DNA of 64,000 bases from Clostridia bacterium (GTDB lineage: Bacteria > Bacillota > Clostridia > RGIG6154). Below, one piece after another: positions 3,056 through 28,581 of this stretch. The notes beneath the pieces were generated by a model. That model was not told where the DNA came from and did no database searches. It worked only from the letters and a program-made list of their open reading frames with translations. The position numbers were made by a program, and so were the translations under genes. Numbering within the stretch: the first letter of the stretch is position 1; each line of letters opens with the position of its first letter. Location of the stretch: contig JAZNOU010000012.1 of the NCBI GenBank assembly GCA_045589295.1, positions 64,001-128,000 on the forward strand. The letters are read 5' to 3'.

Positions 3056-3159
3056 AAAAAAGTCCTTTTGTTTTGTATAAATTTTATTATTGGGGTAATA
3101 ATATGAGTGACCTCACAAAACACATACCCCCTTTTAAAGCGGTAAAACCGCTTTTCGTA

Positions 3160-3186
3160 AAAAGCACCTTGACGGGTGCTTTTTTA
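3160..3186 (-). terminator. Intrinsic terminator of the repressor-immA operon (bidirectional shape)
   Basis: AAAAGCACC-ttgacg-GGTGCTTTTTT hairpin at the end of ORF 3184..3387. Confidence 0.6.
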
Positions 3187-3387
3187 CATATCTTCGGCAT
3201 CTTTTACCGAATCTTTGTCCCAGTCGCCTCTTTTTATATGCGCCATTTCGTGAAGATAGGTAAGGCGCTGTTGCTCGGAAGATAAGTTCTCATTTAAATA
3301 TATATTGTAGTTGCCGTCGTTATCAATTGCGGTATAGCCTTTTATTCTGGTTGGCAGTTTTATCAGTCTTGTAAAAATTTCGTCCAT
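3184..3387 (-). CDS. Short ImmA/IrrE-like zinc metallopeptidase (phage anti-repressor protease type)
   Basis: YNIYLNENLS...TYLHEMAHI (HExxH); directly downstream of an XRE repressor; RBS AAGGAG. Confidence 0.7.
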   Translation of the reverse strand: MDEIFTRLIKLPTRIKGYTAIDNDGNYNIYLNENLSSEQQRLTYLHEMAHIKRGDWDKDSVKDAEDM

Positions 3388-3397
3388 TTTGTTCTCC

Positions 3398-3757
3398 TTA
3401 AAAATCAGTATTTGTAGCTTTCATTGCATTATGTATTGCAATCATTTGTTTTATTTCGGTTGGTGTGGCATTTTTTGCAATGTCAAAAAGAACCTTAAAT
3501 TCAGGGTTTGATTTTAACATTTCTTTCATTTCGTCCACATCATCATTCATATCGTAGTGCTCAACTCCGTACAAATAATCTGTTGAAACCGAGAAAAATT
3601 TTGCAAGTCTGGTAATTGCGTCGGGAGTTGGCACTGCTGCACCTGACTCATATTTACATACAGAAGAAACGTGCACACCTAAAAAGTCTGCAAGCTCTTT
3701 TTGTGTCATATTACTTTGTTTTCGTAAGTTTTTAATATTTTCCGACAAAAGCGGCAT
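3398..3757 (-). CDS. XRE-family HTH repressor (CI/ImmR-like)
   Basis: IKNLRKQSNMTQKELADFLGVHVSSVCKYESG...FSVSTDYL; RBS GAAAGGA. Confidence 0.9.
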   Translation of the reverse strand: MPLLSENIKNLRKQSNMTQKELADFLGVHVSSVCKYESGAAVPTPDAITRLAKFFSVSTDYLYGVEHYDMNDDVDEMKEMLKSNPEFKVLFDIAKNATPTEIKQMIAIHNAMKATNTDF

Positions 3758-3808
3758 AATTTCTATTCCGTCCTTTCATAAAATAAAAGTGCATACGTAC
3801 TTGATATT

Positions 3809-3929
3809 ATTATATGAACTTTATTCAAATTTGTCAATCATTTTTTGAATTATTTTCAACTTTTATCTTGACATTTGAATTAAATTCAATTATAATAGTG
3901 CTTGTAAAAGAGATTTGAATTAAATTCAA
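3809..3929. promoter_or_regulatory. Divergent sigma-A promoters with four TTGAA-N5-TTCAA operators
   Basis: Minus: TTGACA(3837-3832)-17-TATAAT(3814-3809). Plus: TTGACA(3868-3873)-17-TATAAT(3891-3896). Boxes at 3814-3828, 3845-3859, 3875-3889, 3915-3929 (last two identical, TTGAATTAAATTCAA). Confidence 0.85.
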
Positions 3930-3942
3930 GTCAGGAGAAAAT

Positions 3943-4104
3943 ATGATAATTTGCAATTCTTGTGAAAGGATTTCAAGAGAGGCGCTTATTTTAAAAGAAG
4001 TGCATTTTGAGTGTGACGAATGGCCGTATGAGATAATCCCCGTGTGCCCGTACTGCCAGGACACTGACATTGTGAGTTTTGAAGGGAATGATTGTGATGA
4101 CTAA
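3943..4104 (+). CDS. Small zinc-ribbon protein, 53 aa (not in ORF track)
   Basis: RBS AGGAG; MIICNSCERISREALILKEVHFECDEWPYEIIPVCPYCQDTDIVSFEGNDCDD with CxxC...CPxC; overlaps next start. Confidence 0.7.
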   Translation: MIICNSCERISREALILKEVHFECDEWPYEIIPVCPYCQDTDIVSFEGNDCDD

Positions 4105-4384
4105 AACCTGCGGAATATGCGGTAAAGAATTTGACGGCAGACAGCAAAAATATTGCAGTTTTCAGTGCAGATGGAAAGCAAAGCAAATCCAGAGTGCAAG
4201 AAAACCTAAAAAAAGAAAGGAAACACTTTGCTGGACCTGCAAAAATGCGTGCGGCGGATGTTCATGGTCGCAAAGCTTTACTCCCGTTGAAGGATGGGAT
4301 GCTAAAGAAACCGTGTTAAAATCATCAGAAGGTGAGGTGCAGAGCTTTTTTGTCAACAGTTGCCCATTATTTACAATAGGATAA
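4097..4384 (+). CDS. Cys-rich phage-type hypothetical protein
   Basis: MTKTCGICGKEF...YCSFQC and TLCWTCKNACGGCSWS...PVEGW...CP; ATG at 4097 chosen. Confidence 0.7.
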   Translation: MTKTCGICGKEFDGRQQKYCSFQCRWKAKQIQSARKPKKRKETLCWTCKNACGGCSWSQSFTPVEGWDAKETVLKSSEGEVQSFFVNSCPLFTIG

Positions 4385-4394
4385 AGGAGTAAAA

Positions 4395-4805
4395 ATGAAG
4401 GCCAGAGAGTTTTTGAATATGCCTGCCGTGATAAACATGGAAATCATGTGTGCCCGAATTGAACTTGAGCATTACAAAAGGCTTGCCGGGCAAATGCAAA
4501 ATACTTTGGTGGACAATGACAGAACAAGGCTTTTGCTTTTGGATGCAAAGGAGAAAATAAAAGAGCAGGAAAAGCTTTTGGAAGAAAAATATATAAGTCT
4601 TACAAATGCAGAAAGAAAGATTTGTGAGGCTGTTAACCGCCTTGATGATGAGCATGTTAAAGCGGCGCTTAAGTACAGGTACATATGTCTTATGAAATTT
4701 GAGGAAATTTCTGAAAAGATGCAGTATTGCGTGCGTCAGGTCAGAAGATTTTGTGAAAAAGGTATGGCTGAACTTGACGAAATATGGGAAGAAAAAACGG
4801 GCTGA
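4395..4805 (+). CDS. Phage late-gene transcriptional activator (ArpU/RinA/DUF1492-like, sigma70 region 4 HTH)
   Basis: MKAREFL start, coiled coil, C-terminal ALKYRYICLMKFEEISEKMQYCVRQVRRF; RBS AAGGAG. Confidence 0.75.
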   Translation: MKAREFLNMPAVINMEIMCARIELEHYKRLAGQMQNTLVDNDRTRLLLLDAKEKIKEQEKLLEEKYISLTNAERKICEAVNRLDDEHVKAALKYRYICLMKFEEISEKMQYCVRQVRRFCEKGMAELDEIWEEKTG

Positions 4806-4819
4806 CGCCCGTTTTTTTT
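4792..4819. terminator. Bidirectional terminator between activator and hydF
   Basis: AAAAAACGGGC-tgac-GCCCGTTTTTTTT. Confidence 0.75.
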
Positions 4820-6827: not shown

Positions 6828-7037
6828 ATGGAGTATACAGTTGGTGAAAGAATAAGGAGCTTACGGGAGGACAATAATCTTACACAATCACAACTTGCAC
6901 AAAAGCTTAATACTACACAAAGGAAAATATCCTACATTGAGTGCGGAAAGTATGAGCCGTGCATTGGGGATATTGTTGAAATATGCAAATTTTTTAAAGT
7001 TTCGACAGATTTTTTGCTTGGAATAAAAAAAGACTGA
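6828..7037 (+). CDS. XRE-family HTH regulator
   Basis: IRSLREDNNLTQSQLAQKL...ISYIECG...VSTDFLLG. Confidence 0.85.
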   Translation: MEYTVGERIRSLREDNNLTQSQLAQKLNTTQRKISYIECGKYEPCIGDIVEICKFFKVSTDFLLGIKKD

Positions 7038-10829: not shown

Positions 10830-10834
10830 AAATT

Positions 10835-10964
10835 AAATCATCAAAAGTCAGGACATGCGCCTGACTTTTGATACCACTAAATTTGCTTGTGCCTCGTATG
10901 CGAGGCACAAGGCGCGAGCGAACAAATTTGCAAAACCAAAGTGCAATGTGTATTGCACTTTGAG
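10835..10964 (+). repeat. Dispersed three-hairpin repeat, copy A (full)
   Basis: Hairpins at 10840-10872, 10886-10911 and 10937-10962; aligns by eye with reverse complement of 48782-48911. Confidence 0.75.
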
Positions 10965-10985
10965 AGCGACGTTAGGAGCGATTTT

Positions 10986-15147: not shown

Positions 15148-15162
15148 ATGAATAATGAAGGA

Positions 15163-15816: not shown

Positions 15817-15852
15817 ATGTCCTTGAATGTCACATTATAGTAGTGGTATAAT
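15817..15852 (+). promoter_or_regulatory. Putative late promoter of the structural operon
   Basis: Direct repeat ATGTCC/ATGTCA with 10-bp period (15817, 15827), then extended -10 TGGTATAAT (15844-15852). Confidence 0.55.
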
Positions 15853-15877: not shown

Positions 15878-16057
15878 ATGCAAAATAAAGTTTTGAATAA
15901 GACCGAGATACTTTTTAACTTAAGCTTAATTGCAAAAGATGACGCAGTTGCACCTAATTACAGAATAAAAGCTTTGGAGCTTTTGGGTAAGGCAAAGGGG
16001 ATTTTTGAGAGCGACGAAAAGGTTTTGGGTACTGTTAAGATAGTGGATGATATTTAA
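15878..16057 (+). CDS. Terminase small subunit, C-terminal part only (59 aa)
   Basis: RBS GAAAGGAG; RIKALELLGK...VKIVDDI, the typical TerS C-terminus; abuts terL. Confidence 0.75.
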   Translation: MQNKVLNKTEILFNLSLIAKDDAVAPNYRIKALELLGKAKGIFESDEKVLGTVKIVDDI

Positions 16058-17251
16058 GTGAATTTAAAAGATGCTGTAGCACCAAGCTTTTTTAGTGTTC
16101 ACGAAGCAATCAAAAAAGAAAAGTATACCCATTACTTTTTAAAAGGCGGAAGGGGTTCTGCCAAATCATCTTTTGTTTCTGTTGAAATTATTTTAGGTAT
16201 TATGAAAAACAAAAACGCTAATGCGGTGGTTTTAAGATGCGTTGCGTCTTCGCTCCGTGACAGCGTAATAGAACAGCTCAGCTGGGCGGCCGACCTGTTG
16301 GGCGTTTCGCATCTCTTTAAGACGACTTTTGCTCCTGCTGAAATGATTTTTTTACCGACGGGTCAGAAAATTATTTTCAAAGGGGCAGACGATGTTAAGA
16401 AAATCAAATCCACAAAGGTTAAAAACGGATACATAAGATATGTTTGGTTTGAAGAATGTGATGAATTTAAAAGCTACGACGATATTTTATCTGTTAACCA
16501 ATCTCTTTTACGAGGCGGTGAAAAGTTTGAAGTTTTTTACACTTTTAATCCGCCAAAAAATAAATCACATTGGATTAATTCGGTTAAGGGAAACAAAGAC
16601 ACGCTTTTTCATCACTCCACATACTTAAGCGTTCCATTTAAATGGCTTGGAAAACAGTTTTTTGAGGAAGCCGAAAGACTTAAAAATACTGATGAAGAAA
16701 GGTACCGGCATCAGTATTTAGGTGAATGTATTACTCCCAAGGAGCAGATTATTAAAAATTTTGAGGTTTTAGATGAATTACCTGAAACTGACATTAAGTT
16801 TTTAGGTCAGGATTTTGGGTTTAACCATGCAAATGCTATTTTGGAAGTGGGATTTACTGAAAACACTATTTACATTTACAAAGAGCATTATGTAAAGGGT
16901 ATGGACACTTCAGAGGTTATAAAAGATGCCGAAGGCATATTCAATAAAGACCTCATTATGTGGTGCGACAGTGCTGAGCCTGACAGGATTAAAATGTGGA
17001 AAAAGGCTGGATACAGAGCAGTACCTGTTTCAAAGGAGCGCGCATCTGTAAAAGCTCAGATTGATTTTCTTCTTTCCCATAAAATTGTTATTCATTCGTC
17101 CTGCGTTAACACTGTTAACGAAATAAACGGCTGGTGCTGGATGAAGGACAAGGCTACGGGTGAGTGCAGCGATGTGCCAAACCCAATAAATGACGATTTA
17201 ATGGCGGCGCTTCGCTACAGCATTGAATATTTAAGAAAGGCAGGATTTTGA
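16058..17251 (+). CDS. PBSX-family terminase large subunit
   Basis: KGGRGSAKS Walker A, WFEECDE Walker B, TFNPP, GQDFG, CDSAEP, DDLMAALRY. Confidence 0.92.
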   Translation: MNLKDAVAPSFFSVHEAIKKEKYTHYFLKGGRGSAKSSFVSVEIILGIMKNKNANAVVLRCVASSLRDSVIEQLSWAADLLGVSHLFKTTFAPAEMIFLPTGQKIIFKGADDVKKIKSTKVKNGYIRYVWFEECDEFKSYDDILSVNQSLLRGGEKFEVFYTFNPPKNKSHWINSVKGNKDTLFHHSTYLSVPFKWLGKQFFEEAERLKNTDEERYRHQYLGECITPKEQIIKNFEVLDELPETDIKFLGQDFGFNHANAILEVGFTENTIYIYKEHYVKGMDTSEVIKDAEGIFNKDLIMWCDSAEPDRIKMWKKAGYRAVPVSKERASVKAQIDFLLSHKIVIHSSCVNTVNEINGWCWMKDKATGECSDVPNPINDDLMAALRYSIEYLRKAGF

Positions 17252-17254
17252 TTT

Positions 17255-18532
17255 TTGAATATTTACTCAGTTTGCGATTATTTAGGCAAGAAGCTTGGAA
17301 TAAACATTCCTTGCGATTTTTATCAGAACGTAAAGCTCTGGCGTGACTGGTACAAGGGGTATTCAAAAGAGTTTCATCACTATACCGATTTTAACGGCAA
17401 AGAAACGGTGGAACTTGACAGGTACTCGCTTAAAATGGCAAAAAAAGTGTGCGAAGACTGGGCAAATCTGTTGTTTAACGAAAAGACTGTTGTTGCATCT
17501 GATAATGAAAAGGCGGACAAGCTTTTAAAAAGCATATTTTCTGCAAGCTCATTCCGCCAGGGAATGAACAATTTGGTTGAAAAGGCGTTTGCGCTTGGTA
17601 CAGGGGCGGCAGTTTTAAGGTTAAAGGGCAGTGAGATTTCGTTTGATTTCATAGGCGCAGAGTCAATTATTCCAATTTCGTACAAAGATGGCAATATTGA
17701 GGAAGTAGCCTTTGCAAGTGATTTTTATCATAGAGGCAAAAGGTACACTTACTTAGAGTGCCATTTAAAAGACAGTAACGGAAACTACGTTATTACAAAC
17801 GAGTATTTAGACGATTTGTTTGGTGTGGCTGAATTAGACACGGGGGTAATTAAAAGCTACAACACAAACTCTTGTATGCCGTGGTTCTCCATTATAAAGC
17901 CTAATATTGTAAACAATATTAACGATGTAACACCTCTCGGCATCTCGGTTTTTGCTAACGCGATTGACGTTTTAAAGGGACTTGACCTTGCGTATGACAA
18001 TCTTTGCACAGACTTTTTCTTAGGCGGGAAAATGATTATGATGAACGAAACGGTGATTGCAAAAGAAGAGGGCGGAAGAAGAATTCCTCCGCAGTTTTCA
18101 AGAAAGCGCCTTTTTATGTCAATGGGAGATTCTATTATTGACGGGAAAATGTATGAAGAATATAATCCTGCGCTCCGCGTTGACGAAAACACAAAGGGTA
18201 TTTTTACCCAGCTTTCGATTTTGGCCTCCATTTGCGGACTTGGTGAAAAGTTTTACTCTTTTTCAAACAATGAGGTTAAAACTGCAACTGAGGTTATGAG
18301 TGAAAACTCATCTCTTTTCAGATGTGTGAAAAAACACGAAATTATCATCGAAAATGCGCTTATTGCACTTGCAAAGGCGGTGCTTGATATTTTCAAAATT
18401 GATGCAAATGTTACAGTTATGTTTGATGACAGCATTATTGAAGACAAAAAGTCTGAAAGAGAGCAGGATTTTAAAGATGTAGAGGCAGGTCTTATGGAAA
18501 AGGAAAGTTACATCAGAAAGTATCACGCATAA
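17255..18532 (+). CDS. Phage portal protein (SPP1 gp6/A118-like)
   Basis: MAKKVCEDWANLLFNEK, PLGISVFANAID, KTATEVMSENS, FDDSIIED; follows terL. Confidence 0.88.
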   Translation: MNIYSVCDYLGKKLGINIPCDFYQNVKLWRDWYKGYSKEFHHYTDFNGKETVELDRYSLKMAKKVCEDWANLLFNEKTVVASDNEKADKLLKSIFSASSFRQGMNNLVEKAFALGTGAAVLRLKGSEISFDFIGAESIIPISYKDGNIEEVAFASDFYHRGKRYTYLECHLKDSNGNYVITNEYLDDLFGVAELDTGVIKSYNTNSCMPWFSIIKPNIVNNINDVTPLGISVFANAIDVLKGLDLAYDNLCTDFFLGGKMIMMNETVIAKEEGGRRIPPQFSRKRLFMSMGDSIIDGKMYEEYNPALRVDENTKGIFTQLSILASICGLGEKFYSFSNNEVKTATEVMSENSSLFRCVKKHEIIIENALIALAKAVLDIFKIDANVTVMFDDSIIEDKKSEREQDFKDVEAGLMEKESYIRKYHA

Positions 18533-18541
18533 GGAGAAAAA

Positions 18542-18970
18542 ATGGATTTTTTAAAAGAATTTTTAAGTGCTGAGCTTTTTGACTCTGTTAAAAAAGAGCT
18601 TGAGGGCAAAAATGTTAGCCTTATTAACAATTTCAGCGGTGAATATGCTCTAAAAAGCGAGCTTGAAGAACAAAGCAATAAAAAAATCAACGAAATTATG
18701 TTTGAAAATGCGCTCTCTAGCGCGCTTGAAAAAAGTGGAGTTAAAAGCGTTAAAGCGCTCAAAGGGTTTTTAGAGCCTGAAAAAATGAGTTTTGAAGACG
18801 GAGTTTTAAAGGGCTTTAATGAACAGATTACAAAAATAAAAAAAGAAAACGGATTTTTATTTAACGATTTTGGTATAACAGGGCATTCTCACAAAAGCGG
18901 GATGACTGATTTTAACTCAATGAGTGATGATGAATATTACCAGAGCGTTTTAAGAAAGGATGAATTTTAA
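18542..18970 (+). CDS. Phage scaffolding protein (GP20-like)
   Basis: ALEKSGVKSVKALKGFL...GFNEQITKIKKENGFLF; sits between portal and capsid. Confidence 0.75.
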   Translation: MDFLKEFLSAELFDSVKKELEGKNVSLINNFSGEYALKSELEEQSNKKINEIMFENALSSALEKSGVKSVKALKGFLEPEKMSFEDGVLKGFNEQITKIKKENGFLFNDFGITGHSHKSGMTDFNSMSDDEYYQSVLRKDEF

Positions 18971-18972
18971 TT

Positions 18973-20082
18973 ATGGCAAATCAGCTTATTACTATTAAAG
19001 AAATTGCAAGGGCGGCTCTTCCGAGACTTATTGAAAATCTCGCGTTCCCGAACCTTGTTCACAAAGATTTTTCTAACGAGTTTGTTTCAGGTAAAGGTGA
19101 CAGAATTCAGGTAAGAAAGCCTGTTGTGTTATCTGCAGAAGAATTTGATGAAGCAAAAGGCACTTCTGTGCAGGATATTAACGAATCTTCTGTTGAAGTG
19201 GCACTCGACAAGCTTGCAACAGTTGATACAGAATTTTCTGCAATTGCTGCGGCAACTTCTATTGACGATATCAACAGAATTTTCATTGAGCCTGCGGCTG
19301 CGGCTCTTGCACAGAAAATCAACTCTGATGGTTTAGAACTTTATAAAGATATTCCTTATATTACAGGTGAAGCAGGCAAAACTCCGTCTTCCCTGGAAGA
19401 CATTGCGGCTGTAAGAAAGGCTTTAAATGACAAAAATGTTCCGATTACTCCGAGAGTTGCGGTATGGGACACTGAAGCAGACACCAAGTTTACAACTGTT
19501 GACGCTATTGTTCACGCTGACAAGTCAGGCAGAGTAAAAGCACTTCGCGATGGTTCAATCGGTAAGATTTTCGGACTTGAAAACTATATGTCTCAGGCCG
19601 TTAAAAAGCACAAGAGTGAATTGTCAGGCACTGCCCTTAAGATAAATGGTGCGACAGAAGAGGGGGCTACGACACTTTCTGTTACAGGAACAACTCTTAC
19701 AGGCAAGTTTGTAAAAGGCGACGTGCTTAAAATTGACGGCAAAACTTACACAGTTACTAAAGATTCAGATGAAGCGGCAAACAACACAATCGCTGAAGTT
19801 TGTGTTTACCCTGCTCTTGGCGCAGTGAAAGACAAAACAGAAATTACGTTAGTTGGAGACCACACAGCAAATCTTGCGTTTAATCCTATGGCGTTTGCTT
19901 TTGTAACACGTCCGCTTTCTGCTCCGTCAGGCGTTGAAAGCTATGTTACAAGCTACAACGGCATTACACTTCGTGTTGTTAAGGGATACGATATGAAGCA
20001 CAAAAAGGAAATGCTTTCTATGGACGTGCTTTACGGCTACAAAACTATGTATCCTGAGCTTGCAACAAGAGTTTTGGGCTAA
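18973..20082 (+). CDS. Major capsid protein (P22 coat-protein family)
   Basis: MANQLIT, GDRIQVRKP, GKIFGLENYMSQ, NLAFNPMAFAFVTRPL, SMDVLYGYK. Confidence 0.88.
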   Translation: MANQLITIKEIARAALPRLIENLAFPNLVHKDFSNEFVSGKGDRIQVRKPVVLSAEEFDEAKGTSVQDINESSVEVALDKLATVDTEFSAIAAATSIDDINRIFIEPAAAALAQKINSDGLELYKDIPYITGEAGKTPSSLEDIAAVRKALNDKNVPITPRVAVWDTEADTKFTTVDAIVHADKSGRVKALRDGSIGKIFGLENYMSQAVKKHKSELSGTALKINGATEEGATTLSVTGTTLTGKFVKGDVLKIDGKTYTVTKDSDEAANNTIAEVCVYPALGAVKDKTEITLVGDHTANLAFNPMAFAFVTRPLSAPSGVESYVTSYNGITLRVVKGYDMKHKKEMLSMDVLYGYKTMYPELATRVLG

Positions 20083-20103
20083 TCCTTTAAAGGAGGAGCT
20101 TGT

Positions 20104-20436
20104 ATGGATAAAGTAGGATTTGATTATTATCAGAACGTCTTTTTAGGCAGTGAGATTACTTCCAAAAAGGTGTTTGAAAAATTAGAGCGCTACGCACTTT
20201 CGTACGTTGATAAAATCACTTTCGGCAGAATTACTTATATGACCGAAAGCATTAAATGTGCGGTTTGCAGTGTGTGTGAGGCGCTTTTTAAAAGTAGTGA
20301 GCGAAGCGGCATTAAACACGAGGTAAATGACGGATATTCTGTGACTTATACCGATAAGGCAGAAAGCGAATTTTCTGATATTTATATGGCGGCGGCTGTG
20401 TTTTTGCCCGCGGAACTTCTTTACAAAGGTATTTAG
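20104..20436 (+). CDS. Head-tail connector/adaptor
   Basis: VDKITFGRI, KCAVCSVCE, NDGYSVTY, LLYKGI; follows capsid. Confidence 0.7.
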   Translation: MDKVGFDYYQNVFLGSEITSKKVFEKLERYALSYVDKITFGRITYMTESIKCAVCSVCEALFKSSERSGIKHEVNDGYSVTYTDKAESEFSDIYMAAAVFLPAELLYKGI

Positions 20437-20492
20437 CGGAAGGGGGCAATCCCTTTCATGCACAGATTATGAGTAAGGGGTGGATTTTTTAA

Positions 20493-20795
20493 ATGATATG
20501 CTGCGATAAATGTATTACGGTGTTTTCGTTTAACGGGAGGGCGTATGACAGTTTTGTTTTTGATGGTGTGAGTATTTTTGGTTCTGACGGGATTAAAGAA
20601 AATAATTCGGGGTTTGAAGAAAACAACAGCTTTAAAATAAGAATCCCGACAACTCAAAAGATTAGTGTTGCACCAGGTGACAGGGTTGTTTTCGGCATAA
20701 AAGATGCTTTTGATGCAGAAAATGCTTACACCGTTATGAGTGTTAAAGACAACACCAGGGGTGTAAATAAGCACTTTTTAATTGAAATTAAATAA
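20493..20795 (+). CDS. Head closure / neck protein
   Basis: GDRVVFG, TVMSVKDNTRG...H; gene order. Confidence 0.6.
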   Translation: MICCDKCITVFSFNGRAYDSFVFDGVSIFGSDGIKENNSGFEENNSFKIRIPTTQKISVAPGDRVVFGIKDAFDAENAYTVMSVKDNTRGVNKHFLIEIK

Positions 20796-20880
20796 TTTTT
20801 TGTGGGTTGGAGTATCGAAAAGGCAAGTTGTGTTTTAAGGTGGGAGAAAACACAGAATTTAAAAAGAAAGAGGGATTGAT

Positions 20881-21270
20881 TTGATAGATAAAATTCAGGA
20901 ATTTTTGCTCGGTTTCGGGCATTTCAATATAGATTATTTATCGGGAAAGATTAACGGAATGAGTGTGTATCAGGATAATTTTAATCCCGTCAAAAAGCCG
21001 TATTCCGGCGGCGGCGGACTTTACAGGTATTCCTTTTTTGTTGAAATCACAAGCCCTTATGCTGCCGATTTAAATGCAGGCAACCATATGGTGGTTGACG
21101 AGCTTATTGATTTCATAGAAAGAAAAAATTTAAAAAGGCAGCTTCCTGAACTTAAACAGGGGTTAAAGGCGCAGTCTATAAAGGTAATACAAAATTTCGG
21201 GCGTGTGAATACTGCAGTAAACAAGGCAAATTTCAGGCTAAAGCTTGAACTTTTGTACACAAAGGGGTGA
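20881..21270 (+). CDS. Tail terminator / neck (minor capsid-type) protein
   Basis: FNIDYL, DFIERKNLKRQLPEL, LKLELLY; gene order. Confidence 0.6.
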   Translation: MIDKIQEFLLGFGHFNIDYLSGKINGMSVYQDNFNPVKKPYSGGGGLYRYSFFVEITSPYAADLNAGNHMVVDELIDFIERKNLKRQLPELKQGLKAQSIKVIQNFGRVNTAVNKANFRLKLELLYTKG

Positions 21271-21770
21271 TATCTTTGGATTTAATTATGCTATCTGAAA
21301 ATCTAGCGGCATTTATGGAAATTGATGGTAAGTTTTATAAAATGCAAGGTTTTTCAAAGCTGGATATTCTTTCTGTGCCTGAGGTTTATGCAAGAAAATA
21401 CATAAACAACGACTTTAAAAGTGTAACAGTTACTGGCGGTGACACAAAAATTTCATACGCTTTTGACAGAATGAAAAATTTTAAGGTTCATGACGTTTTA
21501 TCACGTATTGCAGACCTTAATTTGAGCGGTGACGAGGCGACAGTAAAAATTGTTTTGGTCGATTTTGACAATGAACAAGACGGAAAGTTTTATGCTATTA
21601 AGCAAAGCTTTGCAGTTGTGTGCAAAGATGTTCGGCCTGAGGATGGTTTTTTAGATTATTTTGGTATGTTTATTTCTTCGGGTAAGGCATCAGAGGGGGC
21701 TGTTACCTCCTGTGATGGTTTTGAAACTGCTGATTTTACAGAGAAAAGGAGGGGAATATTATGCGATTGA
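21267..21770 (+). CDS. Major tail (tube) protein-like
   Basis: LAAFMEI..FYKMQGFS, YARKYIN, ISYAFD; gene order; start uncertain (ATG 21288 possible). Confidence 0.6.
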   Translation: MISLDLIMLSENLAAFMEIDGKFYKMQGFSKLDILSVPEVYARKYINNDFKSVTVTGGDTKISYAFDRMKNFKVHDVLSRIADLNLSGDEATVKIVLVDFDNEQDGKFYAIKQSFAVVCKDVRPEDGFLDYFGMFISSGKASEGAVTSCDGFETADFTEKRRGILCD

Positions 21771-22600
21771 TTTTTGAAAGCGACGGCAAAAAACTTGAAA
21801 TGGGTGACGATTGCGACGCCTCTGTTATTGAAATCTCGGGGCTTGGTACGCCTGAAAGGCAATACAACACCAAAAGGTATGTAAATATTCCAGGACAGGT
21901 TACTGTTTCTTCGCACGTGCTTGCAAGAAATATTGTAATTAAGGGTGATATATGTTTAAACGGAGGGTTGCCGACAGAAAAATATCACACTTTTTTCTGT
22001 CAAAGCGGAATGCTTACCATAACAGGAAAAGATAAAAAGAACATTAATTACAATCCTGTTTCTTTTAAGACGGGCAATAGAAATGGCGAGTTTGTTTCTT
22101 TTGAGCTTAAATTAGTTTGCGATTTTCCTTACTTTTCTGACGGCAATGACATTCCGTATGAGATATACAAAAGATTAGATATGGTAACAGGTAAGTTTAG
22201 TTTACCTAAAGTTTTTACCAAAAGAGTTACTGAGGTGGATATCTACAATTCGGGACAGGCAGACTCTGAACCTGTTATAACCATTGGATGTACAAATCAG
22301 GGTATTTACTCAGGCGGCATTGTGATTTACAATGCGCTTACAAAAAAAGAACTTAAGCTGGATACCAATCTTTCTTTAGGTGAAACGATTACAATTGATA
22401 TAAAAAACAGAAAAATCTCGAGTAATAAGAGAGCAAACTGCTACGGAATTTTAAATGAGAATTGTGTTTTGTCTGATTTTGTGATTGCAAGGGGAATAAA
22501 TCATATTTTACTTACAAACTTAAACGACGGAGAAACAGTTACAGCATCAATTTTGTTTAATAATTTATATGCGGAGGCGGAGATTGTTGAAAGAAATTAA
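21761..22600 (+). CDS. Distal tail (Dit/Sipho_tail) protein
   Basis: ISGLG, PG, RNIVIKG, CDFPYF, IYNSGQ..SEPVITI, GETITID, GINHI. Confidence 0.75.
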   Translation: MRLIFESDGKKLEMGDDCDASVIEISGLGTPERQYNTKRYVNIPGQVTVSSHVLARNIVIKGDICLNGGLPTEKYHTFFCQSGMLTITGKDKKNINYNPVSFKTGNRNGEFVSFELKLVCDFPYFSDGNDIPYEIYKRLDMVTGKFSLPKVFTKRVTEVDIYNSGQADSEPVITIGCTNQGIYSGGIVIYNALTKKELKLDTNLSLGETITIDIKNRKISSNKRANCYGILNENCVLSDFVIARGINHILLTNLNDGETVTASILFNNLYAEAEIVERN

Positions 22601-23726
22601 AATTTATGATTTTGACTTTAACCTGATTGCTTCCGAGTTTAAGTGCGTTTCATTTAAGTGGGATGTAAGATTTAATTCAATTGGCGGCTTCGAGGGGGTA
22701 TTTACCCTTGATTCTGACATTTATTCTACGTGTGCAAACAAGGATTTTTTGGTTTGCGTTCAAGGCGAAAATCAGGGAATTGTAACCTCTGTGAGAATTG
22801 AAAACGACCAGATTATAATTAGCGGGAAGTCTTTAAACTTTTTGCTTGAAAAAAGGGTTTGTCTACCTTTTTCAACTAAAGATAGCGGTATTTTAAAATC
22901 TGCTCCCGAGCTTGTGTGCGAGTTGGTTTTAAAGTATTGCGGTGATTTTATGGAGGTTTTAAGTGCACCACAAGGATACGATAAATCGCATTTTACCAGG
23001 ATTGAAGCAAAGCCTCTTTGCGAGATTGTAACAGATTTGCTAAGCGGTGTTAATCTTGGACATTTTGTTAAGTTTGACATAAAAAACAAAAAGTGGATAT
23101 TTGGCATAATAGAGCCTGAAGTAAAAAACATTGTGCTTTCAGAACCTGACAAAACCCTTTCTGATTGCGATTATGTAAGATATTTGTCAGACTATGCTGC
23201 GTCAGGCGTTTATCAGCAAAAAGTATATTATCAGGGCTTGTGGAATGCTGAGACAAACACTCCTTTTTTGTGGGACAATGAAAAACCCAATTTTGCAAAA
23301 GCTTACAAGGTGGAAGAGGCCGGTCAGATGTTTGGCATAAGTTTTGACAAGGGTGATTACATTATTTGCAAGGATGAAAGCGGTAAGTGGCAAAAAAGTG
23401 CAGATTGCTTACCTTTTTGGTACAAGGTTACACCTAAAAACGCAAATGGAGCTAAACTTTGGGAGTGCGCTTTATCCTGCGATGATATTTCAGAGGCTTA
23501 CGAATTGACACTTTTAAGAGAAATAAGCGAAAATGTGGTAGCACTTACCGAGGGTGAGGTTAAAAACGAGTTTAAAGTGGGCGATATAATAAAAATTCAG
23601 CTTGGCAGAGGCGATGCTCTAAAGGTTTTTACAAAGCAGGTTAAAAGAATGGTGCATCACAGCGACGCTGAGGAAAGTTTTGTAAGACCTACATTCTATA
23701 AGTTAAAGGAGAGGGAAGATGAGTAA
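22569..23726 (+). CDS. Siphovirus baseplate hub (Gp37/Tal-like) protein
   Basis: IKIYDFDFNLI, RFNSIGGFE, ISGKSL..LLEKR, FKVGDII; follows Dit; true start may be TTG near 22587. Confidence 0.65.
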   Translation: MRRRRLLKEIKIYDFDFNLIASEFKCVSFKWDVRFNSIGGFEGVFTLDSDIYSTCANKDFLVCVQGENQGIVTSVRIENDQIIISGKSLNFLLEKRVCLPFSTKDSGILKSAPELVCELVLKYCGDFMEVLSAPQGYDKSHFTRIEAKPLCEIVTDLLSGVNLGHFVKFDIKNKKWIFGIIEPEVKNIVLSEPDKTLSDCDYVRYLSDYAASGVYQQKVYYQGLWNAETNTPFLWDNEKPNFAKAYKVEEAGQMFGISFDKGDYIICKDESGKWQKSADCLPFWYKVTPKNANGAKLWECALSCDDISEAYELTLLREISENVVALTEGEVKNEFKVGDIIKIQLGRGDALKVFTKQVKRMVHHSDAEESFVRPTFYKLKEREDE

Positions 23727-24573
23727 TTATAAATATACTTTTTTTGATAATCAGACGGTTGGCGTTGACCATTTGAACGAAATTACAAAGAGGCTTGTGT
23801 CAGGGGGGATTTCTGCAGTTTACAGCGGAGTAGATTTTAATGTTGCAGACATTAATGATAACAATAAGGCGATTTTAACAGGCGGTGTTGTACCTGGAAA
23901 TGATTTGAATTTAAAGGTAACGGCGGTAGGAAGCGGAAAGTACCTTATAAATCAGGGACTTTGCTTTTTTAACAACGGCACTACTATGGAGATTTTATCG
24001 GGCGGAGAAGAAATTGTTGTACCGCAAGGGGTAACAAGCTACATTTATTTGGTGTCCGACAGCAATAAAATGGCGTGTTATGTCGAAGTTTTGCAAAGTG
24101 AAAAGCAGACGGGTGAATTTATTCTTCTGGCTGTTATAAATGTTGACGGGACAGTTGTCGATAAACGCACCTATGCGAAAGGTAAAGTTCCCGGGTTTTA
24201 TGCGTCTTCCGAGAGCATGCAGGTAAATATTACCCAAAAATATGAGGGAGAAAAAAATATAGAAATTTCGGTTGGTATGGGCAATTTTAAGCATCTTTGT
24301 ATCAGGGCAGAGTCAGGCGCTTTTCATAATGGTTCTGGGTATAACATTAATTACGGGGGACTTTTTTATTGTGATTTTGAAAACTCAGTTGCGGTAAATC
24401 CTTCTATGTGTTCCGTGCTTGCAGGCGATAGTTATATTTATTATGACAGAAACATTGGCTCCTGCCGTCTTGGGTCTAATATTAGATTGGAAAACGGAAA
24501 GCTCATTATACCTGTGATAGAGGGTAATGTAAATAAGGGGTATGAAGTACGGTTTTCATATCATTTATGGTAA
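23719..24573 (+). CDS. Baseplate / minor tail protein
   Basis: YTFFDN, G.CFFNNG, ILLAVI...VDKRTY; gene order. Confidence 0.6.
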   Translation: MSNYKYTFFDNQTVGVDHLNEITKRLVSGGISAVYSGVDFNVADINDNNKAILTGGVVPGNDLNLKVTAVGSGKYLINQGLCFFNNGTTMEILSGGEEIVVPQGVTSYIYLVSDSNKMACYVEVLQSEKQTGEFILLAVINVDGTVVDKRTYAKGKVPGFYASSESMQVNITQKYEGEKNIEISVGMGNFKHLCIRAESGAFHNGSGYNINYGGLFYCDFENSVAVNPSMCSVLAGDSYIYYDRNIGSCRLGSNIRLENGKLIIPVIEGNVNKGYEVRFSYHLW

Positions 24574-24585
24574 GGAGGAGTTTAG

Positions 24586-27411
24586 ATGAAGAGAAAAATT
24601 ATTCCAAAACAAAAATATACAACCTATGCTTCGTTTCCGCTTGTGTCTGGCGACGTAAGGGCATACGAGATAGAGCTTGATTTAGGTGAAAATGTTTCGG
24701 GGGCGGAGTTTAAGGTAGTTGCAATCCGCGCTGACGGCAAGGCTATTGAGGATTTGGGAACAGTTGAAAACGGAATCGCAAGATATACTTTATCAAACAG
24801 TATGTACGCCGTACAGGGTGAGCTTACTGTAAGATTGCAGATACTTCATAATTCAAGTGTTTTAACTGATAGGGAAATTATTTTTGAGGTTAAAAAAGGT
24901 GCGACTGATACTACAGCGGCACAAACTGTTATGCCTCTTAACGACAGTGTGATTTTAAGAGTTTCTGCATTTGAAGATAAGCTTTTAAGCAAGGTTGACA
25001 AACAAGCGGGCATGGGACTTTCGACAAATGATTTTTCGGACCAGTACAAGCAAAAACTTGATAACTTAGATGAAACTATGGGAGCAGAAATAGAGCAAAT
25101 ATCAGAAACGATTGATAATTTGTCAGATAGTTTTGATGAACACACAAAAGACAAAGCAAACCCCCACAATGTTACGGCGCAGCAGGTTGGTGCATATTCA
25201 AAATCTGAAACAGATAACAAGCTTTATAAAAAAGCGGATAAATCAGATATTTCTAATATATACTCATATCAAGGCTCAGTTGATACTTTTGAGGATATTG
25301 AGTGTATCAGCATAACGCTTGTCCCCAATGGCGAGCCTACTTGCAAAGGACAAGTATGCGGGTCGTTTAATGAAGATGATGGGTGTGTGACTATCGATGA
25401 GATAGCAGAAGAAGATTTTGATACAATTATTATTCCAATAAAAGAGGTAACGCTTAAAAAGGGGTATTATGCTATATCAAGCGAGCTGAGAGATGGTATG
25501 TATAAGTCAGGAATTGCAATTGATATTTACCAAATGGATGAATTTAATGTGCAGGAAGGATATGTTTTCAAAGTCGAAAATGACACGGTTATAAATCTGG
25601 CTCATATATTCAGACATAGTGATTCACTATTTGGTGGTTGCACAGGAGATGTTGTATGCACACTTACCAAAATGCCAAATATACTTGTAGATGAATCCAG
25701 CTATAACGAACAATATGGAACTTGTGAAGCGTATGGCATTTCTCCGTCAAACGGCTCAGTATACAACGTCTTAGACACGGGTATAAACTATGCTTGGAAT
25801 GGTACTGAATGGGACGCTTTAGGCGGTGAGCATAAGGATTTAGAGGCTAGAGAAGAAATTAAAAAACTGTCTGATAGTTTGGACTGTATTGATATTAGTG
25901 ATAATAACATTTCGTTTAACAGAGATAAAAACACAGTCGGCATAATAAAAGAGATTGGTAGTTTCACCTGTACTGCGATTGATGAAAGTACAAACAAATA
26001 CACCTTTGATGTTGCTGACACGTCAGTTTTTGTTTCATACACCGAGTACAAGGTTACGGTAGATGATACTGACTATCTTATAAGGTCAACAACAATAAAC
26101 GAAGATAACGTTGTGTTTGAAGCGGTTGATGATGCAGTTCCTTTTGAGGTTGGAAATACATACAACATAAGATTTGAGACAAAAAATGCAACCTCTTTTG
26201 GTGTGGATAATACAGTTTTGGCAAATGAGGGCTTTGCAACAGGTATGGCTAATTTCATTGATGAAACTGGCGACCAAGGTGTTGCTCACGGATACGGCAA
26301 TAAGCTCTCAGGAAAGGCACATTTTGTTGCAGGTTCATCAAATGATGTTTCAGAAGGCAGTACTGATACAATATTTGGCAGTAACAACATTGTCAAAGGC
26401 AGTAACAAACTTGTTGCAGGTCTAAACCTGCTTGCGGAATTAACTGCTTCGGGAAGTGCTGTATTAGGAAAATACAACATTGATGTAAAAGATGCTTTGC
26501 TTATAGTTGGTATCGGATATGATAAAAACCACAGACAAAATGCTTTGGTTATGGACAAAAACGGCAATATTGTAGCTTATGGTACTCTTACTGTGGATAA
26601 TAATGTAAGTATTAACGGAGAGCTAAATGTTTGCAATAAAGCTGTTATGTCTAAGGGGTTAGAGGTTAACGGTGAAACTACGATTGATGGCAGTACAAAT
26701 ATTAAAGGAGCAATGGCATATAAAGAGTCTGAGGTTGTGAACCTAGAAATGTTATCCAAACATACAGGTATCGATATTGGCAGAAAAGGTGCAGGTTATA
26801 TGTCTGTCGTGTTTAATCACGACGGTAATGAAGGAAGCGGGTATGCTTCGTTTACTGCAGGCACAAGTAACAAAACAACTGCAGGACAGGCAGCAACCTT
26901 TGGGCACGCAAATGAAAATAGCGGTTTTTCTGCTTTTACTGCAGGCTCGGGCAATATAACTACAAAAGACCAAGGTGCTACGTTTGGCTATTCAAATGAA
27001 AATCACGGATGGGCTTCTTTCATAGCCGGTGCTTTTAACAAAATAAAAGGAGCTTTTAACGCCTGTATTGCTTTAGGTAGGGATATATTAATAAATGCAG
27101 ATAACGCTATTGGTATTGGAAGAGGACTTAATGTTGATAAGGCTAACCAAGTAGTTGTTGGTGCATATAACAAGTCTGATAATGAATCTGTGTTTATAGC
27201 AGGCTGTGGTACGGATGATAAAAACCGCAAGAACGCAATAACTGTAAGAGAATCTGACGGACGTACCAAAATCCATAATGGGCTTGATGTAGAAGGTTTA
27301 ATAAACGGTGTGGATTTACAAGAACTTAAAACGCAAATGGGTGACATTAACACTGCACTTGAAGCCATTATCGAAATTGACAATAAACTGATTGGCGGTG
27401 ATGGTGAATGA
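24586..27411 (+). CDS. Tail fibre / receptor-binding protein (BppU-like N-terminus, YadA-head-like repeats)
   Basis: KVDKQAGMGLSTNDF, NPHNVTAQQVG, NYAWNGTEWDALGG, 14-aa periodic AxG.SN repeats, G.G.D..RKNA neck motifs. Confidence 0.75.
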   Translation: MKRKIIPKQKYTTYASFPLVSGDVRAYEIELDLGENVSGAEFKVVAIRADGKAIEDLGTVENGIARYTLSNSMYAVQGELTVRLQILHNSSVLTDREIIFEVKKGATDTTAAQTVMPLNDSVILRVSAFEDKLLSKVDKQAGMGLSTNDFSDQYKQKLDNLDETMGAEIEQISETIDNLSDSFDEHTKDKANPHNVTAQQVGAYSKSETDNKLYKKADKSDISNIYSYQGSVDTFEDIECISITLVPNGEPTCKGQVCGSFNEDDGCVTIDEIAEEDFDTIIIPIKEVTLKKGYYAISSELRDGMYKSGIAIDIYQMDEFNVQEGYVFKVENDTVINLAHIFRHSDSLFGGCTGDVVCTLTKMPNILVDESSYNEQYGTCEAYGISPSNGSVYNVLDTGINYAWNGTEWDALGGEHKDLEAREEIKKLSDSLDCIDISDNNISFNRDKNTVGIIKEIGSFTCTAIDESTNKYTFDVADTSVFVSYTEYKVTVDDTDYLIRSTTINEDNVVFEAVDDAVPFEVGNTYNIRFETKNATSFGVDNTVLANEGFATGMANFIDETGDQGVAHGYGNKLSGKAHFVAGSSNDVSEGSTDTIFGSNNIVKGSNKLVAGLNLLAELTASGSAVLGKYNIDVKDALLIVGIGYDKNHRQNALVMDKNGNIVAYGTLTVDNNVSINGELNVCNKAVMSKGLEVNGETTIDGSTNIKGAMAYKESEVVNLEMLSKHTGIDIGRKGAGYMSVVFNHDGNEGSGYASFTAGTSNKTTAGQAATFGHANENSGFSAFTAGSGNITTKDQGATFGYSNENHGWASFIAGAFNKIKGAFNACIALGRDILINADNAIGIGRGLNVDKANQVVVGAYNKSDNESVFIAGCGTDDKNRKNAITVRESDGRTKIHNGLDVEGLINGVDLQELKTQMGDINTALEAIIEIDNKLIGGDGE

Positions 27412-28571: not shown

Positions 28572-28581
28572 GAGTGATTTT

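Follow-up and report, generated by a model that had tools for sequence, protein, structure and literature searches.

A five-gene repressor-protease-activator module as the candidate switch of a tamed phage particle system in gut Clostridia

Introduction

What does a small set of phage-type regulatory genes control when it stands in the host chromosome between the genes for MurT and HydF? This question is raised by one locus in a stretch of 64,000 nucleotides of clostridial DNA, referred to below as the window.

PBSX of Bacillus subtilis is a defective phage kept by its host, whose heads cannot carry its own genome; its Xre repressor acts through several operators, the sigma-like factor Xpf turns on the late operon, and all of these parts are contiguous. 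A control module separate from a dispersed late regulon is otherwise known from the GTAs of alphaproteobacteria, and RcGTA has an unlinked regulator, GafA.

Late regulators of the Ltr super-family comprise RinA/ArpU, LtrA (Sigma70_r4), LtrB (DUF1492) and LtrC (passages of Quiles-Puchalt et al. 2013, PMC3753634). According to the same passages, LtrB and LtrA proteins were shown to bind DNA repeats and so to activate terS promoters, and late transcription needs no phage factor other than the Ltr regulator. In the Listeria monocin the protease MpaR cleaves a CI-like repressor under SOS conditions (passages of Argov et al. 2019, PMC6872733). MuF toxins of temperate phages join minor-head-protein sequence to a C-terminal toxin domain and are followed by a small immunity gene (passages of Jamet et al. 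2017, PMC5576092). GTA-like particles in gut Clostridia were reported only in 2026, with FpGTA of Faecalibacterium (Nat Commun, PMC12946183).

Here we argue that the five genes probably act as master switch for tamed phage particles of the GTA/PBSX type, a system passed on by vertical inheritance. To judge from the sequence, this switch most likely turns on a structural cluster, together with toxin and lysis genes elsewhere, via a common promoter box.

Organization of the switch module

The module lies amid housekeeping genes and consists of the following features:

3157..3187, both strands: bidirectional hairpin terminator, murT / ImmA-like gene (folding, z -3.9 to -4.0)
3184..3387, minus strand: ImmA67, a minimal HExxH (M78/COG2856-like) protein of 67 aa, presumed anti-repressor protease
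3398..3757, minus strand: XRE119 repressor, 119 aa, with an N-terminal HTH and a conserved C-terminal 40-aa domain
3943..4104, plus strand: Zn53, a 53-aa Cys4 zinc-ribbon protein in the cro position
4097..4384, plus strand: Cys-rich protein, 95 aa from ATG 4097 (the likely start) or 101 aa from TTG 4079
4395..4805, plus strand: Act136, 136 aa, coiled coil and sigma-70 region-4-like HTH, DUF1492/LtrB-type
4790..4819, plus strand: intrinsic terminator closing the activator operon (-17.3 kcal/mol, z -4.0)

An earlier note on this DNA had described a repressor/protease pair opposite a three-gene operon in the murT-hydF interval, and gene calls and flanks confirm this in full: the XRE repressor and the HExxH protein diverge from the operon for the Zn-ribbon protein, the Cys-rich protein and the activator. 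Terminators had been claimed at both ends. A consensus terminator scan of the module region returned none, and folding located strong hairpins with U runs at 4790-4819 and 3157-3187 (z about -4), where the claim places them. The claimed absence of cro, integrase and replication genes was likewise borne out, as ORFs and searches of Pfam, PHROGs and NCBIfam gave no cro-type HTH, integrase or replication gene in or adjoining the module.

Promoters and operators of the switch

Two promoters and four candidate operators occupy the interval between the divergent genes:

3809..3837, minus strand: P-left, promoter of the XRE-ImmA operon, TTGACA-17-TATAAT, 12/12 match, kept across the family
3814..3828, no strand: O1, candidate operator ATGAACTTTATTCAA, ATGAA-N5-TTCAA with one mismatch, inside the P-left spacer
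3845..3859, no strand: O2, candidate operator, exact TTGAA-N5-TTCAA, between the two -35 elements
3868..3896, plus strand: P-right, promoter of the Zn53-Cys101-Act136 operon, TTGACA-17-TATAAT, 12/12 match
3875..3889, no strand: O3, candidate operator, exact TTGAA-N5-TTCAA, inside the P-right spacer
3915..3929, no strand: O4, candidate operator, exact TTGAA-N5-TTCAA, about +12 to +26 downstream of P-right

Both promoters had been called perfect TTGACA-17-TATAAT elements, and their scores of 12/12 agree. The four boxes attributed to the promoter spacers are present, with one in each spacer, but O2 and O4 lie outside the spacers and O1 is inexact. The exact TTGAA-N5-TTCAA motif occurs three times in the window against 0.52 expected, a count reached in 2 of 100 shuffles; the whole 1.54-Mb genome has 23 distinct sites, and three of them fall together in a stretch of 85 bp here. 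Both promoters and all four operators are found at identical places in each of the 13 intergenic regions that were read completely, while the fourteenth (G012) is represented by its right-hand 82 nt, i.e. O3, the P-right -10 and O4. The position of O1 is unchanged in the 12 other genomes with the P-left region read. In genus g2 both operator half-sites are altered together (TGAAT to TGATT), and because this change is symmetrical the operators fit a dimeric HTH binder. The genes of XRE119 and ImmA67 lie 10 nt apart on the same strand with a candidate operator in the P-left spacer, a layout for autoregulation; a repressor and a protease gene in one operon with its own operator form the arrangement of the ImmR/ImmA type.

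The repressor and the putative protease

XRE119 matches HTH_3 (2.8e-15) and, just under the cut-off, an RstR-like model (1.1e-21). Its C-terminal domain is common to ImmA-linked XREs of other families.

ImmA67 carries an HEMAH motif and matches Pfam Peptidase_M78 (PF06114) with 28.7 bits (cut-off 22), the match covering only positions 21-58 of the 123 in the profile. It also matches PHROG 20936 and 20886, which are short phage forms, and it has less than half the length of the characterised proteases ImmA, IrrE and MpaR. A PDB profile search gave nothing useful (best E 0.48). Twenty-three columns are invariant in 13 genomes of five genera, including H46, E47, H50, D55, D57 and E65. The HExxH motif is invariant across the family; all five outgroup proteins have the E and the second His, and the degenerate copy of G313 among them has lost the first. 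The conserved D55, D57 and E65 could supply the third metal ligand expected of an M78 domain. If active, this 67-residue HExxH protein would be a minimal ImmA-type protease.

The shortness of ImmA67, together with the missing integrase, replication and cro genes, might suggest a decaying prophage remnant without present function. This is hardly credible, given that the layout is identical in the 13 full intergenic regions and in the right-hand 82 nt of G012, that ImmA67 keeps its 23 invariant columns across five genera, and that each of the five genes has a dN/dS well under 1.

The three proteins of the rightward operon

Zn53 is present in all 14 modules found (see below) and belongs to no family in Pfam, NCBIfam or PHROGs. 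The Cys-rich protein has two Cys clusters and 22 invariant columns. Its C-terminal domain, CWxCxNAxxxCSW, is phage-associated and occurs in gut phages, and full-length orthologues were found only in the cluster-bearing family; a PDB profile search with this protein gave nothing useful (best E 0.17).

Act136 matches phrog_36 (9.6e-9) and, in the PDB, SigF region 4 (E 9.6e-4), and its residues 44-132 give weak NCBIfam sigma-70/ECF matches. Residues 1-136 match Atlas DUF1492 clusters (score 0.97), with structure neighbours at TM 0.83-0.92. The nearest of these clusters contain PF07374 in 23-80% of their members, and structure rows 3, 5 and 8 qualify for the name; a Pfam search at E up to 1 gave no DUF1492 (PF07374) match for Act136. 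The protein is encoded by a single-copy gene and is the only regulator of its type found in the 1.54-Mb genome. By these sequence and fold matches Act136 is classed as a DUF1492/sigma-region-4 (LtrB-type) late regulator of the Ltr super-family. The earlier description as an ArpU/RinA-like activator is right as to the super-family, but the type is DUF1492/LtrB, not strictly ArpU/RinA.

An alternative is that the module is a stand-alone stress or defence switch like CapH/CapP or DdrO/IrrE, the three small proteins being effectors, e.g. of an abortive-infection or DNA-damage response. XRE119 does match the PADLOC model of capH (1.5e-9) and also RmrA models. In G390 and G333 an ImmA-XRE pair stands opposite a DUF1492-like gene among non-phage genes, and the TerL of the present cluster, used as query, found no homologue in these genomes or in G197. 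DUF4417 and Ntox50 genes come after the activator in G002. On the other hand, none of the three P-right proteins matches a PADLOC model, full-length orthologues of the Cys-rich protein keep to cluster-bearing genomes, and the fold of Act136 is that of a phage late activator, which makes a defence switch distinctly improbable.

The late operon and its promoter box

If Act136 is a late regulator, its presumed target is the one structural cluster of the genome, whose terS lies 11.0 kb from the module with housekeeping genes between:

15818..15852, plus strand: late promoter, direct-repeat box TGTCCTTGAATGTCA and TATAAT with a 14-nt spacer between; the module is presumed to act here
15878..29283, plus strand: late operon for a 59-aa TerS, TerL, portal, scaffold, major capsid, connectors, Dit, fibres and endolysin (PHROGs)

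The cluster holds structural, packaging and lysis genes at a chromosomal site flanked by holA and rpsO/pnp, without integrase or replication genes. [quoted passage not shown] Chaperone, tape-measure-like gene and holin, which the other genera have, are missing from genus g1, to which this genome belongs, so particle production here is uncertain.

The interval 15780-15877, which the earlier note had singled out, contains a conserved late-promoter box: a direct repeat TGTC-N6-TGTCA with a 10-bp period, 14 nt before the -10 element. It precedes terS in 12 of the 12 loci read and also in G001 and G007, i.e. in all cluster-bearing genomes, and the 14-nt spacing is constant wherever it was counted (G000, G003, G012 and G016). 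An exact 16-mer of the box has three copies in the 1.54-Mb genome, one before terS and two before barnase/barstar pairs. The box is multi-copy in most cluster-bearing genomes, the additional copies preceding barnase/barstar (G000, G005), amidase and holin (G012, G013) or fibre-like genes (G003, G016), and genus g4 yields one chance-like match in four genomes. Related prophages and the outgroup loci L064-L071 have no TGTC box, except for two matches inside unrelated sequence.

Since the operator half-site TTGAAT is also central in the late box of four genera, it was considered that XRE119 represses the late promoters directly, with no activator needed. Operators and box fail to covary: in g2 the operators change to TGATT and the late box still has TTGAAT, whereas in g6 the late boxes change to TTGTTT or TTGCTT and the operators keep TGAAT. 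The late box is, moreover, non-palindromic, and what stays constant in it is the pair of TGTC repeats. Binding of XRE119 to the late box was accordingly rejected, and direct repression is very improbable.

In a metatranscriptome, the sole mismatch-free contigs across 20 kb lie in Act136 (4427-4614) and in terS/terL (16021-16225); these are two contigs of low depth from one metatranscriptome, where DNA carry-over is possible and the uncovered parts are uninformative, and they hint weakly at expression of both. A small XRE gene near the cluster (15191-15400) was dismissed as the conserved regulator, being absent from G005 and from a variant contig of run X2.

Co-occurrence and descent of module and cluster

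The five module genes were found in 14 of the 18 genomes of this order of uncultured gut Clostridia, representing five of its six genera (12 by blastp, plus G003 and G000). The capsid gene is present in the identical 14 genomes, with 71-92% identity, and is effectively single copy, additional matches in G001 and G007 being fragments at contig ends. Neither module nor cluster was found in the four genomes of genus g4. Co-occurrence had been fixed beforehand as the test that could refute a link between the two, and it gave both in 14 of 18 genomes and neither in the remaining four. The whole cluster is syntenic in 13 other genomes.

Values of dN/dS are 0.03-0.26 for the module genes (0.03 for ImmA67) and 0.06-0.22 for genes of the structural cluster, compared with 0.08-0.13 for MurT, GatD and HydF, at a divergence where synonymous sites are saturated among the 14 genomes. 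Trees of the capsid and of the module recover the same genera as the PNPase tree. The sequences indicate that cluster and module are inherited vertically under purifying selection. The word "orphan" previously applied to the module fits its isolation among housekeeping genes but understates it, since it is a conserved unit with a wider presumed regulon.

In a quick single-protein PNPase tree g4 is basal (SH-aLRT 94); because the genus lacking both is basal, co-occurrence amounts to one evolutionary event and could follow from common origin alone. Module and cluster might then be co-inherited from one prophage but uncoupled, another host or element factor reading the TGTC box and the module controlling itself or some other target. 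The two are in fact unlinked in every genus: the distance is 11 kb in G000 and about 24 kb in G005, where the holA-cluster block is inverted, and in the fragmented assemblies of the other genera they lie on different contigs. No operator or TGTC box is common to module and cluster. In addition, the g1 terS promoter looks fairly strong by itself, and with its fair -35 (TTGAAT, 18-nt spacer) and TGn extended -10 it might fire without an activator. Against this, none of the 14 genomes has lost one of the two while keeping the other, despite the saturation of synonymous sites, tested members of the family of Act136 activate terS promoters, and the 1.54-Mb genome yielded no further candidate for a late regulator. 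We consider uncoupled inheritance unlikely. Counting against a coupling, ImmA67-like genes (seven genomes) and capsid homologues (six genomes) outside the family never occur together among the 399 genomes of the class.

The proposed circuit

The interpretation given in the earlier note, of a repressor-cleavage switch feeding a late activator, is supported in every part that could be computed, and the following circuit is proposed. Dimers of XRE119 on the four palindromic operators would shut P-right and autoregulate P-left, as the placement of the operators suggests. Upon a stress signal, ImmA67 would inactivate XRE119, probably via the conserved C-terminal domain; we infer this step by analogy with ImmR/ImmA, the monocin CI-like repressor and MpaR, and DdrO/IrrE. 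P-right would then be freed and Zn53, the Cys-rich protein and Act136 made. Act136 is predicted to bind TGTC-N6-TGTCA overlapping the -35 region of late promoters, which would thereby be switched on. In the present genome these promoters would be those of terS and of two MuF-fragment barnase/barstar pairs, and in sister genera also those of holin-amidase and fibre genes. The assignment of Act136 to the cluster is also made by elimination, because it is the only such regulator found in the genome and there is a single structural cluster; Zn53 or the Cys-rich protein could instead be the reader of the box. A repressor/protease/late-activator circuit like those of PBSX and the monocin is suggested by the conserved module, the activator family and the distribution of the box.

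Toxin and immunity genes

The two pairs preceded by the late box consist of a toxin with a C-terminal barnase domain (PF00545, 2.9e-10) and a downstream barstar immunity gene (PF01337, 5e-16). A complete N-terminal MuF domain is not present in the toxins, only its last ~40 residues: residues 19-57 align with positions 69-111 of the 112 in the MuF profile, a match (E 8.6e-4) that falls short of the cut-off, and phrog_115 is matched at 1.1e-7. The pairs stand away from the head module and each is preceded by a late promoter of its own, and in G003 a toxin pair lies within the cluster, between amidase and holin.

As in the MuF polymorphic toxins (passages of Jamet et al. 2017, PMC5576092), a MuF-toxin fusion is followed by a small immunity gene; unlike in those, the MuF domain is partial and the genes are separate from the head module. 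The word "barnase" is absent from the main text of that paper. It is conceivable, if doubtful, that the system is a capsid weapon or courier owned by the host, the unlinked switch co-inducing heads, short tails, lysis and MuF-tag-barnase toxins for delivery into neighbours. The toxins would dock in the capsid via the fragment of the minor head protein, and barstar would protect kin. Were this so, an entire order of gut Clostridia would have retained a capsid-borne delivery system for polymorphic toxins, and the module would be the first regulator for GTA-like particles of gut Firmicutes. The occurrence of MuF-fragment toxins in the presumed late regulon also bears directly on whether capsids carry MuF toxins.

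Comparison with known systems

As in PBSX, the order of control would run from an XRE repressor via a sigma-like positive factor to a late operon led by terS; unlike in PBSX, the switch is apart from dispersed late promoters, and Act136 has only a region-4-like domain.

The monocin (passages of PMC6872733) is likewise a tamed phage without an excision or replication module, in which a CI-like repressor and the DUF955 protein MpaR stand opposite lmaD/lmaC, i.e. opposed promoters, one serving repressor and metalloprotease and the other small early genes. It is also vertically inherited and absent from one early-branching group. The monocin switch, however, adjoins its tail and lysis genes, whereas the present one is unlinked; head and packaging genes are present in this element, whereas the monocin is without capsid genes; and where ImmA67 has 67 residues, MpaR is a DUF955 protein of full length. 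The passages of PMC6872733 name no DUF1492 activator for the monocin.

Act136 resembles the Ltr activators (passages of PMC3753634) in its small size, a C-terminal part for DNA specificity, cI-type control and a repeat before terS, binding to which is here presumed. Unlike them, it lies in the host chromosome at a distance of at least 11 kb, with presumed sites spread over several loci.

FpGTA (passages of PMC12946183) shares with this system its occurrence in gut Clostridia, conservation across species, a TerS that is short and has no DNA-binding domain, and the distribution of structural and lysis genes over more than one locus; the word "regulator" is absent from the main text of that paper. 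The likeness to GTAs lies here in the genes, and the only pointers to particles filled with random host DNA are the 59-aa TerS with its C-terminal profile match and the two RNA contigs. Because capsid homologues outside the own family are scarce (6 of 399 genomes of the class), the two probably represent separate lineages.

If the proposed circuit is correct, the control module of a tamed phage of Firmicutes can be physically apart from its dispersed late regulon. The minimal switch and the defined late-promoter box and regulon are three concrete parts that lend themselves to testing.

Related loci in prophages

In siphoviruses of Firmicutes the replication genes were said to separate the repressor from a late activator placed just before terS. 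The related complete prophage G141 has int-ImmA-XRE at one end and an Act-like gene after the replication genes, upstream of terS, so the first half of this statement holds there; four small ORFs, however, intervene before terS. The order of genes in G141 is taken as the ancestral one. In phage NatCom_43819 the Act136 homologue also follows the replication genes and lies upstream of the packaging region, not abutting terS. In a gut phage, direct repeats of 10-11 bp stand immediately after its Act homologue.

A divergent regulatory module between murT and hydF

The ORF list and a reading of the sequence bear out the arrangement proposed in the earlier note, i.e. an XRE repressor and an HExxH protease gene diverging from a three-gene operon in the murT-hydF interval:

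1709-3055 (-): murT, left flank (NCBIfam)
3184-3387 (leftward): 67-aa HEMAH protein (ImmA67), 10 nt after XRE119
3398-3757 (leftward): XRE119, first gene of the leftward pair
3943-4104 (rightward): 53-aa Cys4 protein (Zn53), first of the trio
4097 (ATG) to 4384 (rightward): Cys-rich protein, its start overlapping the end of Zn53
4395-4805 (rightward): 136-aa protein (Act136), last of the trio
4836-6014 (-): hydF, right flank (NCBIfam)

The five module genes were taken from the ORF list. A promoter scan found two back-to-back promoters, P-left and P-right, both of which are, as previously claimed, perfect TTGACA-17-TATAAT sequences (12/12 match each). The boxes TTGAA-N5-TTCAA had been described as four in number, with an operator in the spacer of each promoter. 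Three exact sites are present in the window (0.52 expected; 23 sites per 1.54 Mb genome-wide), all inside 85 bp of the XRE119/Zn53 intergenic region, and sequence reading added a fourth, with one mismatch, inside the P-left spacer; the number therefore stands, but just two boxes lie within spacers. Folding revealed strong hairpins with U runs at either end, in agreement with a terminator-bounded module, while a simple consensus scan listed no terminators there.

All 13 completely read intergenic regions share one layout with both promoters and four operators: O1 lies in the spacer of P-left, O2 separates the two -35 elements, O3 occupies the P-right spacer and O4 follows shortly 3' of P-right. 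A fourteenth region (genome G012) was read over its right-hand 82 nt, and these contain O3, the P-right -10 and O4. In genus g2, TGAAT is replaced by TGATT in both half-sites together, so that the palindrome is kept; such a symmetric change is predicted for a dimeric HTH repressor.

Proteins encoded by the module

XRE119 is an HTH_3 protein whose nearest models are RstR-type phage repressors, and its last 40 residues are common to ImmA-linked XREs of other families with differing HTH parts. ImmA67 scores above the Pfam Peptidase_M78 threshold with one third of the model covered, and matches two PHROGs made of 72-91-residue phage proteins; its catalytic competence is uncertain. Residues R7, L11, P12, T19, Y27, N28, N32, E47, H50, D55 and E65 of this mini-ImmA are also kept in outgroups, where the ImmA/XRE pair is adjoined by an integrase (G364) or followed by Mu-like early genes (G197), a location that would be expected for a lysogeny switch. 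Zn53 has no match in Pfam, NCBIfam or PHROGs. Full-length orthologues of the Cys-rich protein are restricted to the family, and its C-terminal domain also occurs in uncultured gut phages, at early or pre-packaging regions.

Act136 has no match in Pfam. It matches phrog_36 ('transcriptional regulator') and, weakly, sigma-70 ECF models and SigF region 4 in PDB. In the ESM Atlas (features 0.97; full-length structure, TM 0.83-0.92) it falls among mostly viral DUF1492/Sigma70_r4 clusters. These families correspond to LtrB and LtrA, respectively, two groups of late transcriptional regulators. According to Quiles-Puchalt et al. (2013, PMC3753634), cI controls the expression of such proteins, which bind to repeated DNA 5' of terS and suffice to switch on the late operon. 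The previous assignment of Act136 as 'ArpU/RinA-like' is thus correct for the super-family but not for the family.

Co-occurrence and descent of the module and the structural cluster

15878-29283: structural cluster (TerS of 59 aa, TerL, portal, scaffold, major capsid protein, connectors, Dit, fibres, endolysin)

The cluster, situated between holA and rpsO/pnp, contains no integrase or replication gene. We compared the genome under study (G000; 1.54 Mb, 22 contigs) with the rest of its order (18 species-level genomes in total, six genera, g1-g6). The capsid protein is present in 14 of the 18 (71-92% identity), effectively in single copy, since additional matches in G001 and G007 are contig-end fragments, and synteny of the entire cluster extends to 13 further genomes. 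The same 14 genomes carry all five module genes (12 by blastp, G003 by profile, plus G000), and the four genomes of g4 (completeness 72-96%) have neither capsid nor module. The co-occurrence proposed as a check in the earlier note held across the order. Perfect as it is, it amounts to a single gain or a single loss, because g4 is sister to the remaining five genera (quick PNPase tree, SH-aLRT 94).

The capsid tree and the concatenated module tree both recover every genus. All five module genes show dN/dS values of 0.03-0.26, far under 1 and similar to those of flanking housekeeping genes, with synonymous sites saturated. The neighbours of the module change with genus (murT/hydF in g1, galT/nrdD in g6, others elsewhere), and in none of the 14 genomes does it adjoin the cluster: the distance is about 11 kb in G000 and about 24 kb in G005, where the holA-cluster block is inverted, and elsewhere the two reside on separate contigs. 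In a class sample of 399 genomes, capsid homologues were found outside the family in six and ImmA67-like genes in seven, with no overlap.

Over the 20 kb compared with one metatranscriptome (contigs only), two RNA contigs were free of mismatches:

4427-4614: inside Act136
16021-16225: across terS/terL

The remaining pieces were diverged or represented short conserved stretches of housekeeping genes. The two contigs hint weakly at co-expression of Act136 and terS/terL, with DNA carry-over as a possible alternative source.

The late box and its candidate regulator

By-eye alignment of 12 loci revealed one conserved element 5' of terS: TGTC-N6-TGTC(A), 14 nt, -10 hexamer; the rest of the upstream DNA is unalignable. 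This late box also precedes terS in G001 and G007. As a point against the need for an activator, the terS promoter of g1 combines a reasonable -35 with a TGn motif and might fire unaided. Further copies were found in most cluster-bearing genomes by a pattern search over the family (controls: 0-2 matches per strand per genome, maximum 4 in one genome); the four g4 genomes gave one, chance-like match.

G000, window 15818: exact 16-mer TGTCCTTGAATGTCAC (three sites in the genome), upstream of terS
G000, same contig outside the window, two sites: TGTCCTTGAATGTCAC, upstream of MuF-fragment/barnase + barstar loci C12:44822-45732 (L087) and C12:1993-2812 (L086)
G005: twice upstream of barnase/barstar
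G012, G013: upstream of amidase + holin
G003, G016: upstream of fibre- or receptor-binding-like proteins
G003: upstream of a replisome-organiser-like gene

Both G000 toxin loci encode a barnase-family RNase (PF00545, 2.9e-10 and 2e-10) followed by barstar (PF01337). Ahead of the RNase, the intact toxin retains the end (the last ~40 residues) of a MuF domain, known from minor head proteins; in the second copy the N-terminal portion is not in frame. The G003 toxin/barstar pair (toxin 57% identical to that of G000) lies within the cluster, between amidase and holin. Because the extra copies precede toxin, lysis and fibre genes, and the G003 toxin is inside the cluster, the late box appears to define a dispersed late regulon linked to particle genes. 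A palindrome, AATAACGTTATT, right after the -10 is common to the two G000 toxin promoters and two in G005, and missing from the terS promoter; it may provide a second control layer at toxin promoters.

Act136 is the candidate regulator acting at this box. The proposal is based on the tested function of the Ltr family (PMC3753634), on our finding no other such regulator in the G000 genome, and on the invariance or near-invariance of its recognition-helix residues (Y111, R114, R118; the N-terminal half diverges), which parallels the invariant TGTC repeats. Moreover, homologues in G141 (a complete prophage, capsid 56-61% identical) and in phage NatCom_43819 sit past replication genes, upstream of the packaging region. 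XRE119 is unlikely to read the late box, since the box and the XRE operators do not covary.

Directly 3' of the NatCom_43819 homologue (L118 4400-4470) there are 3-4 CTTCACCC direct repeats with 10-11-bp spacing, then a TG-extended -10, a likely Ltr binding site of other specificity. A mini-ImmA/XRE pair directly facing a DUF1492-like gene also occurs in two other families (L064 of G390, 10290-11463; L065 of G333, 9773-11126), in non-phage surroundings and without the two Cys proteins; this cluster's TerL, used as query, found no homologue in either genome. Orphan switches like these may be common. In g2 (L034 of G002, 509-2187), a DUF4417 gene and then an Ntox50 toxin-domain gene lie 3' of the activator on the same strand.

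Relation to known systems

The module resembles in its logic PBSX, where an Xre repressor is combined with the sigma-like Xpf. Scattered targets have a counterpart in RcGTA, whose targets lie at several loci. The same regulatory logic is found in the Listeria monocin, described (PMC6872733) as having a CI-like repressor and metalloprotease MpaR opposite small early genes, lacking an early module, vertically inherited and missing from an early-branching group, and in Ltr-dependent late promoters (PMC3753634). The present system differs from monocin, PBSX and Ltr systems in a switch physically apart from its presumed targets, the scattering of these targets over several loci, and a putative protease of only 67 residues. 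The split operons of FpGTA (PMC12946183) are comparable to this scattering; the word 'regulator' is absent from that paper's main text, and in the literature searched no paper that names DUF1492 deals with tamed elements.

Variation within and around the cluster

Between Dit and the tail protein of 167 aa, genera g2, g3, g5 and g6 encode two additional proteins, one of 176 aa belonging to phrog_706 and one of 380-499 aa that is coiled-coil and tape-measure-like (window 21267-22600 set against L076 9365-11068 and L080 8745-10778). Both are missing from g1, including G000, as are the chaperone and holin of the remaining genera; tblastn found no match anywhere in G000 to the phrog_706 protein, the tape-measure-like protein, or the other genera's holin or amidase. 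The g1 particles may be tail-poor, or use a different lysis route.

Small unknown ORFs 3' of the first toxin/barstar pair (L087, G000:C12:40615-44330), with a serine resolvase at the end and adjoining an Eco57I-type methyltransferase, may form a small mobile or satellite-like element. At 6828-7037, a GGDEF gene and a Toprim-like gene flank a lone 69-aa XRE gene that has no partner (RstR-like, 5.6e-12). Two copies of one hairpin, GCAAACGCTTTGGCGTTTGC, enclose a cassette at 15150-15770 that comprises a small XRE gene (15191-15400, -) together with a 76-aa ORF (15492-15722, +) and has palindromes of its own, TACCATATGGTA. This cassette is missing from G005, where holA abuts terS, and from a contig of DNA run X2, in which 15186 is joined to 15763; it resembles a small insertion that only some strains carry.
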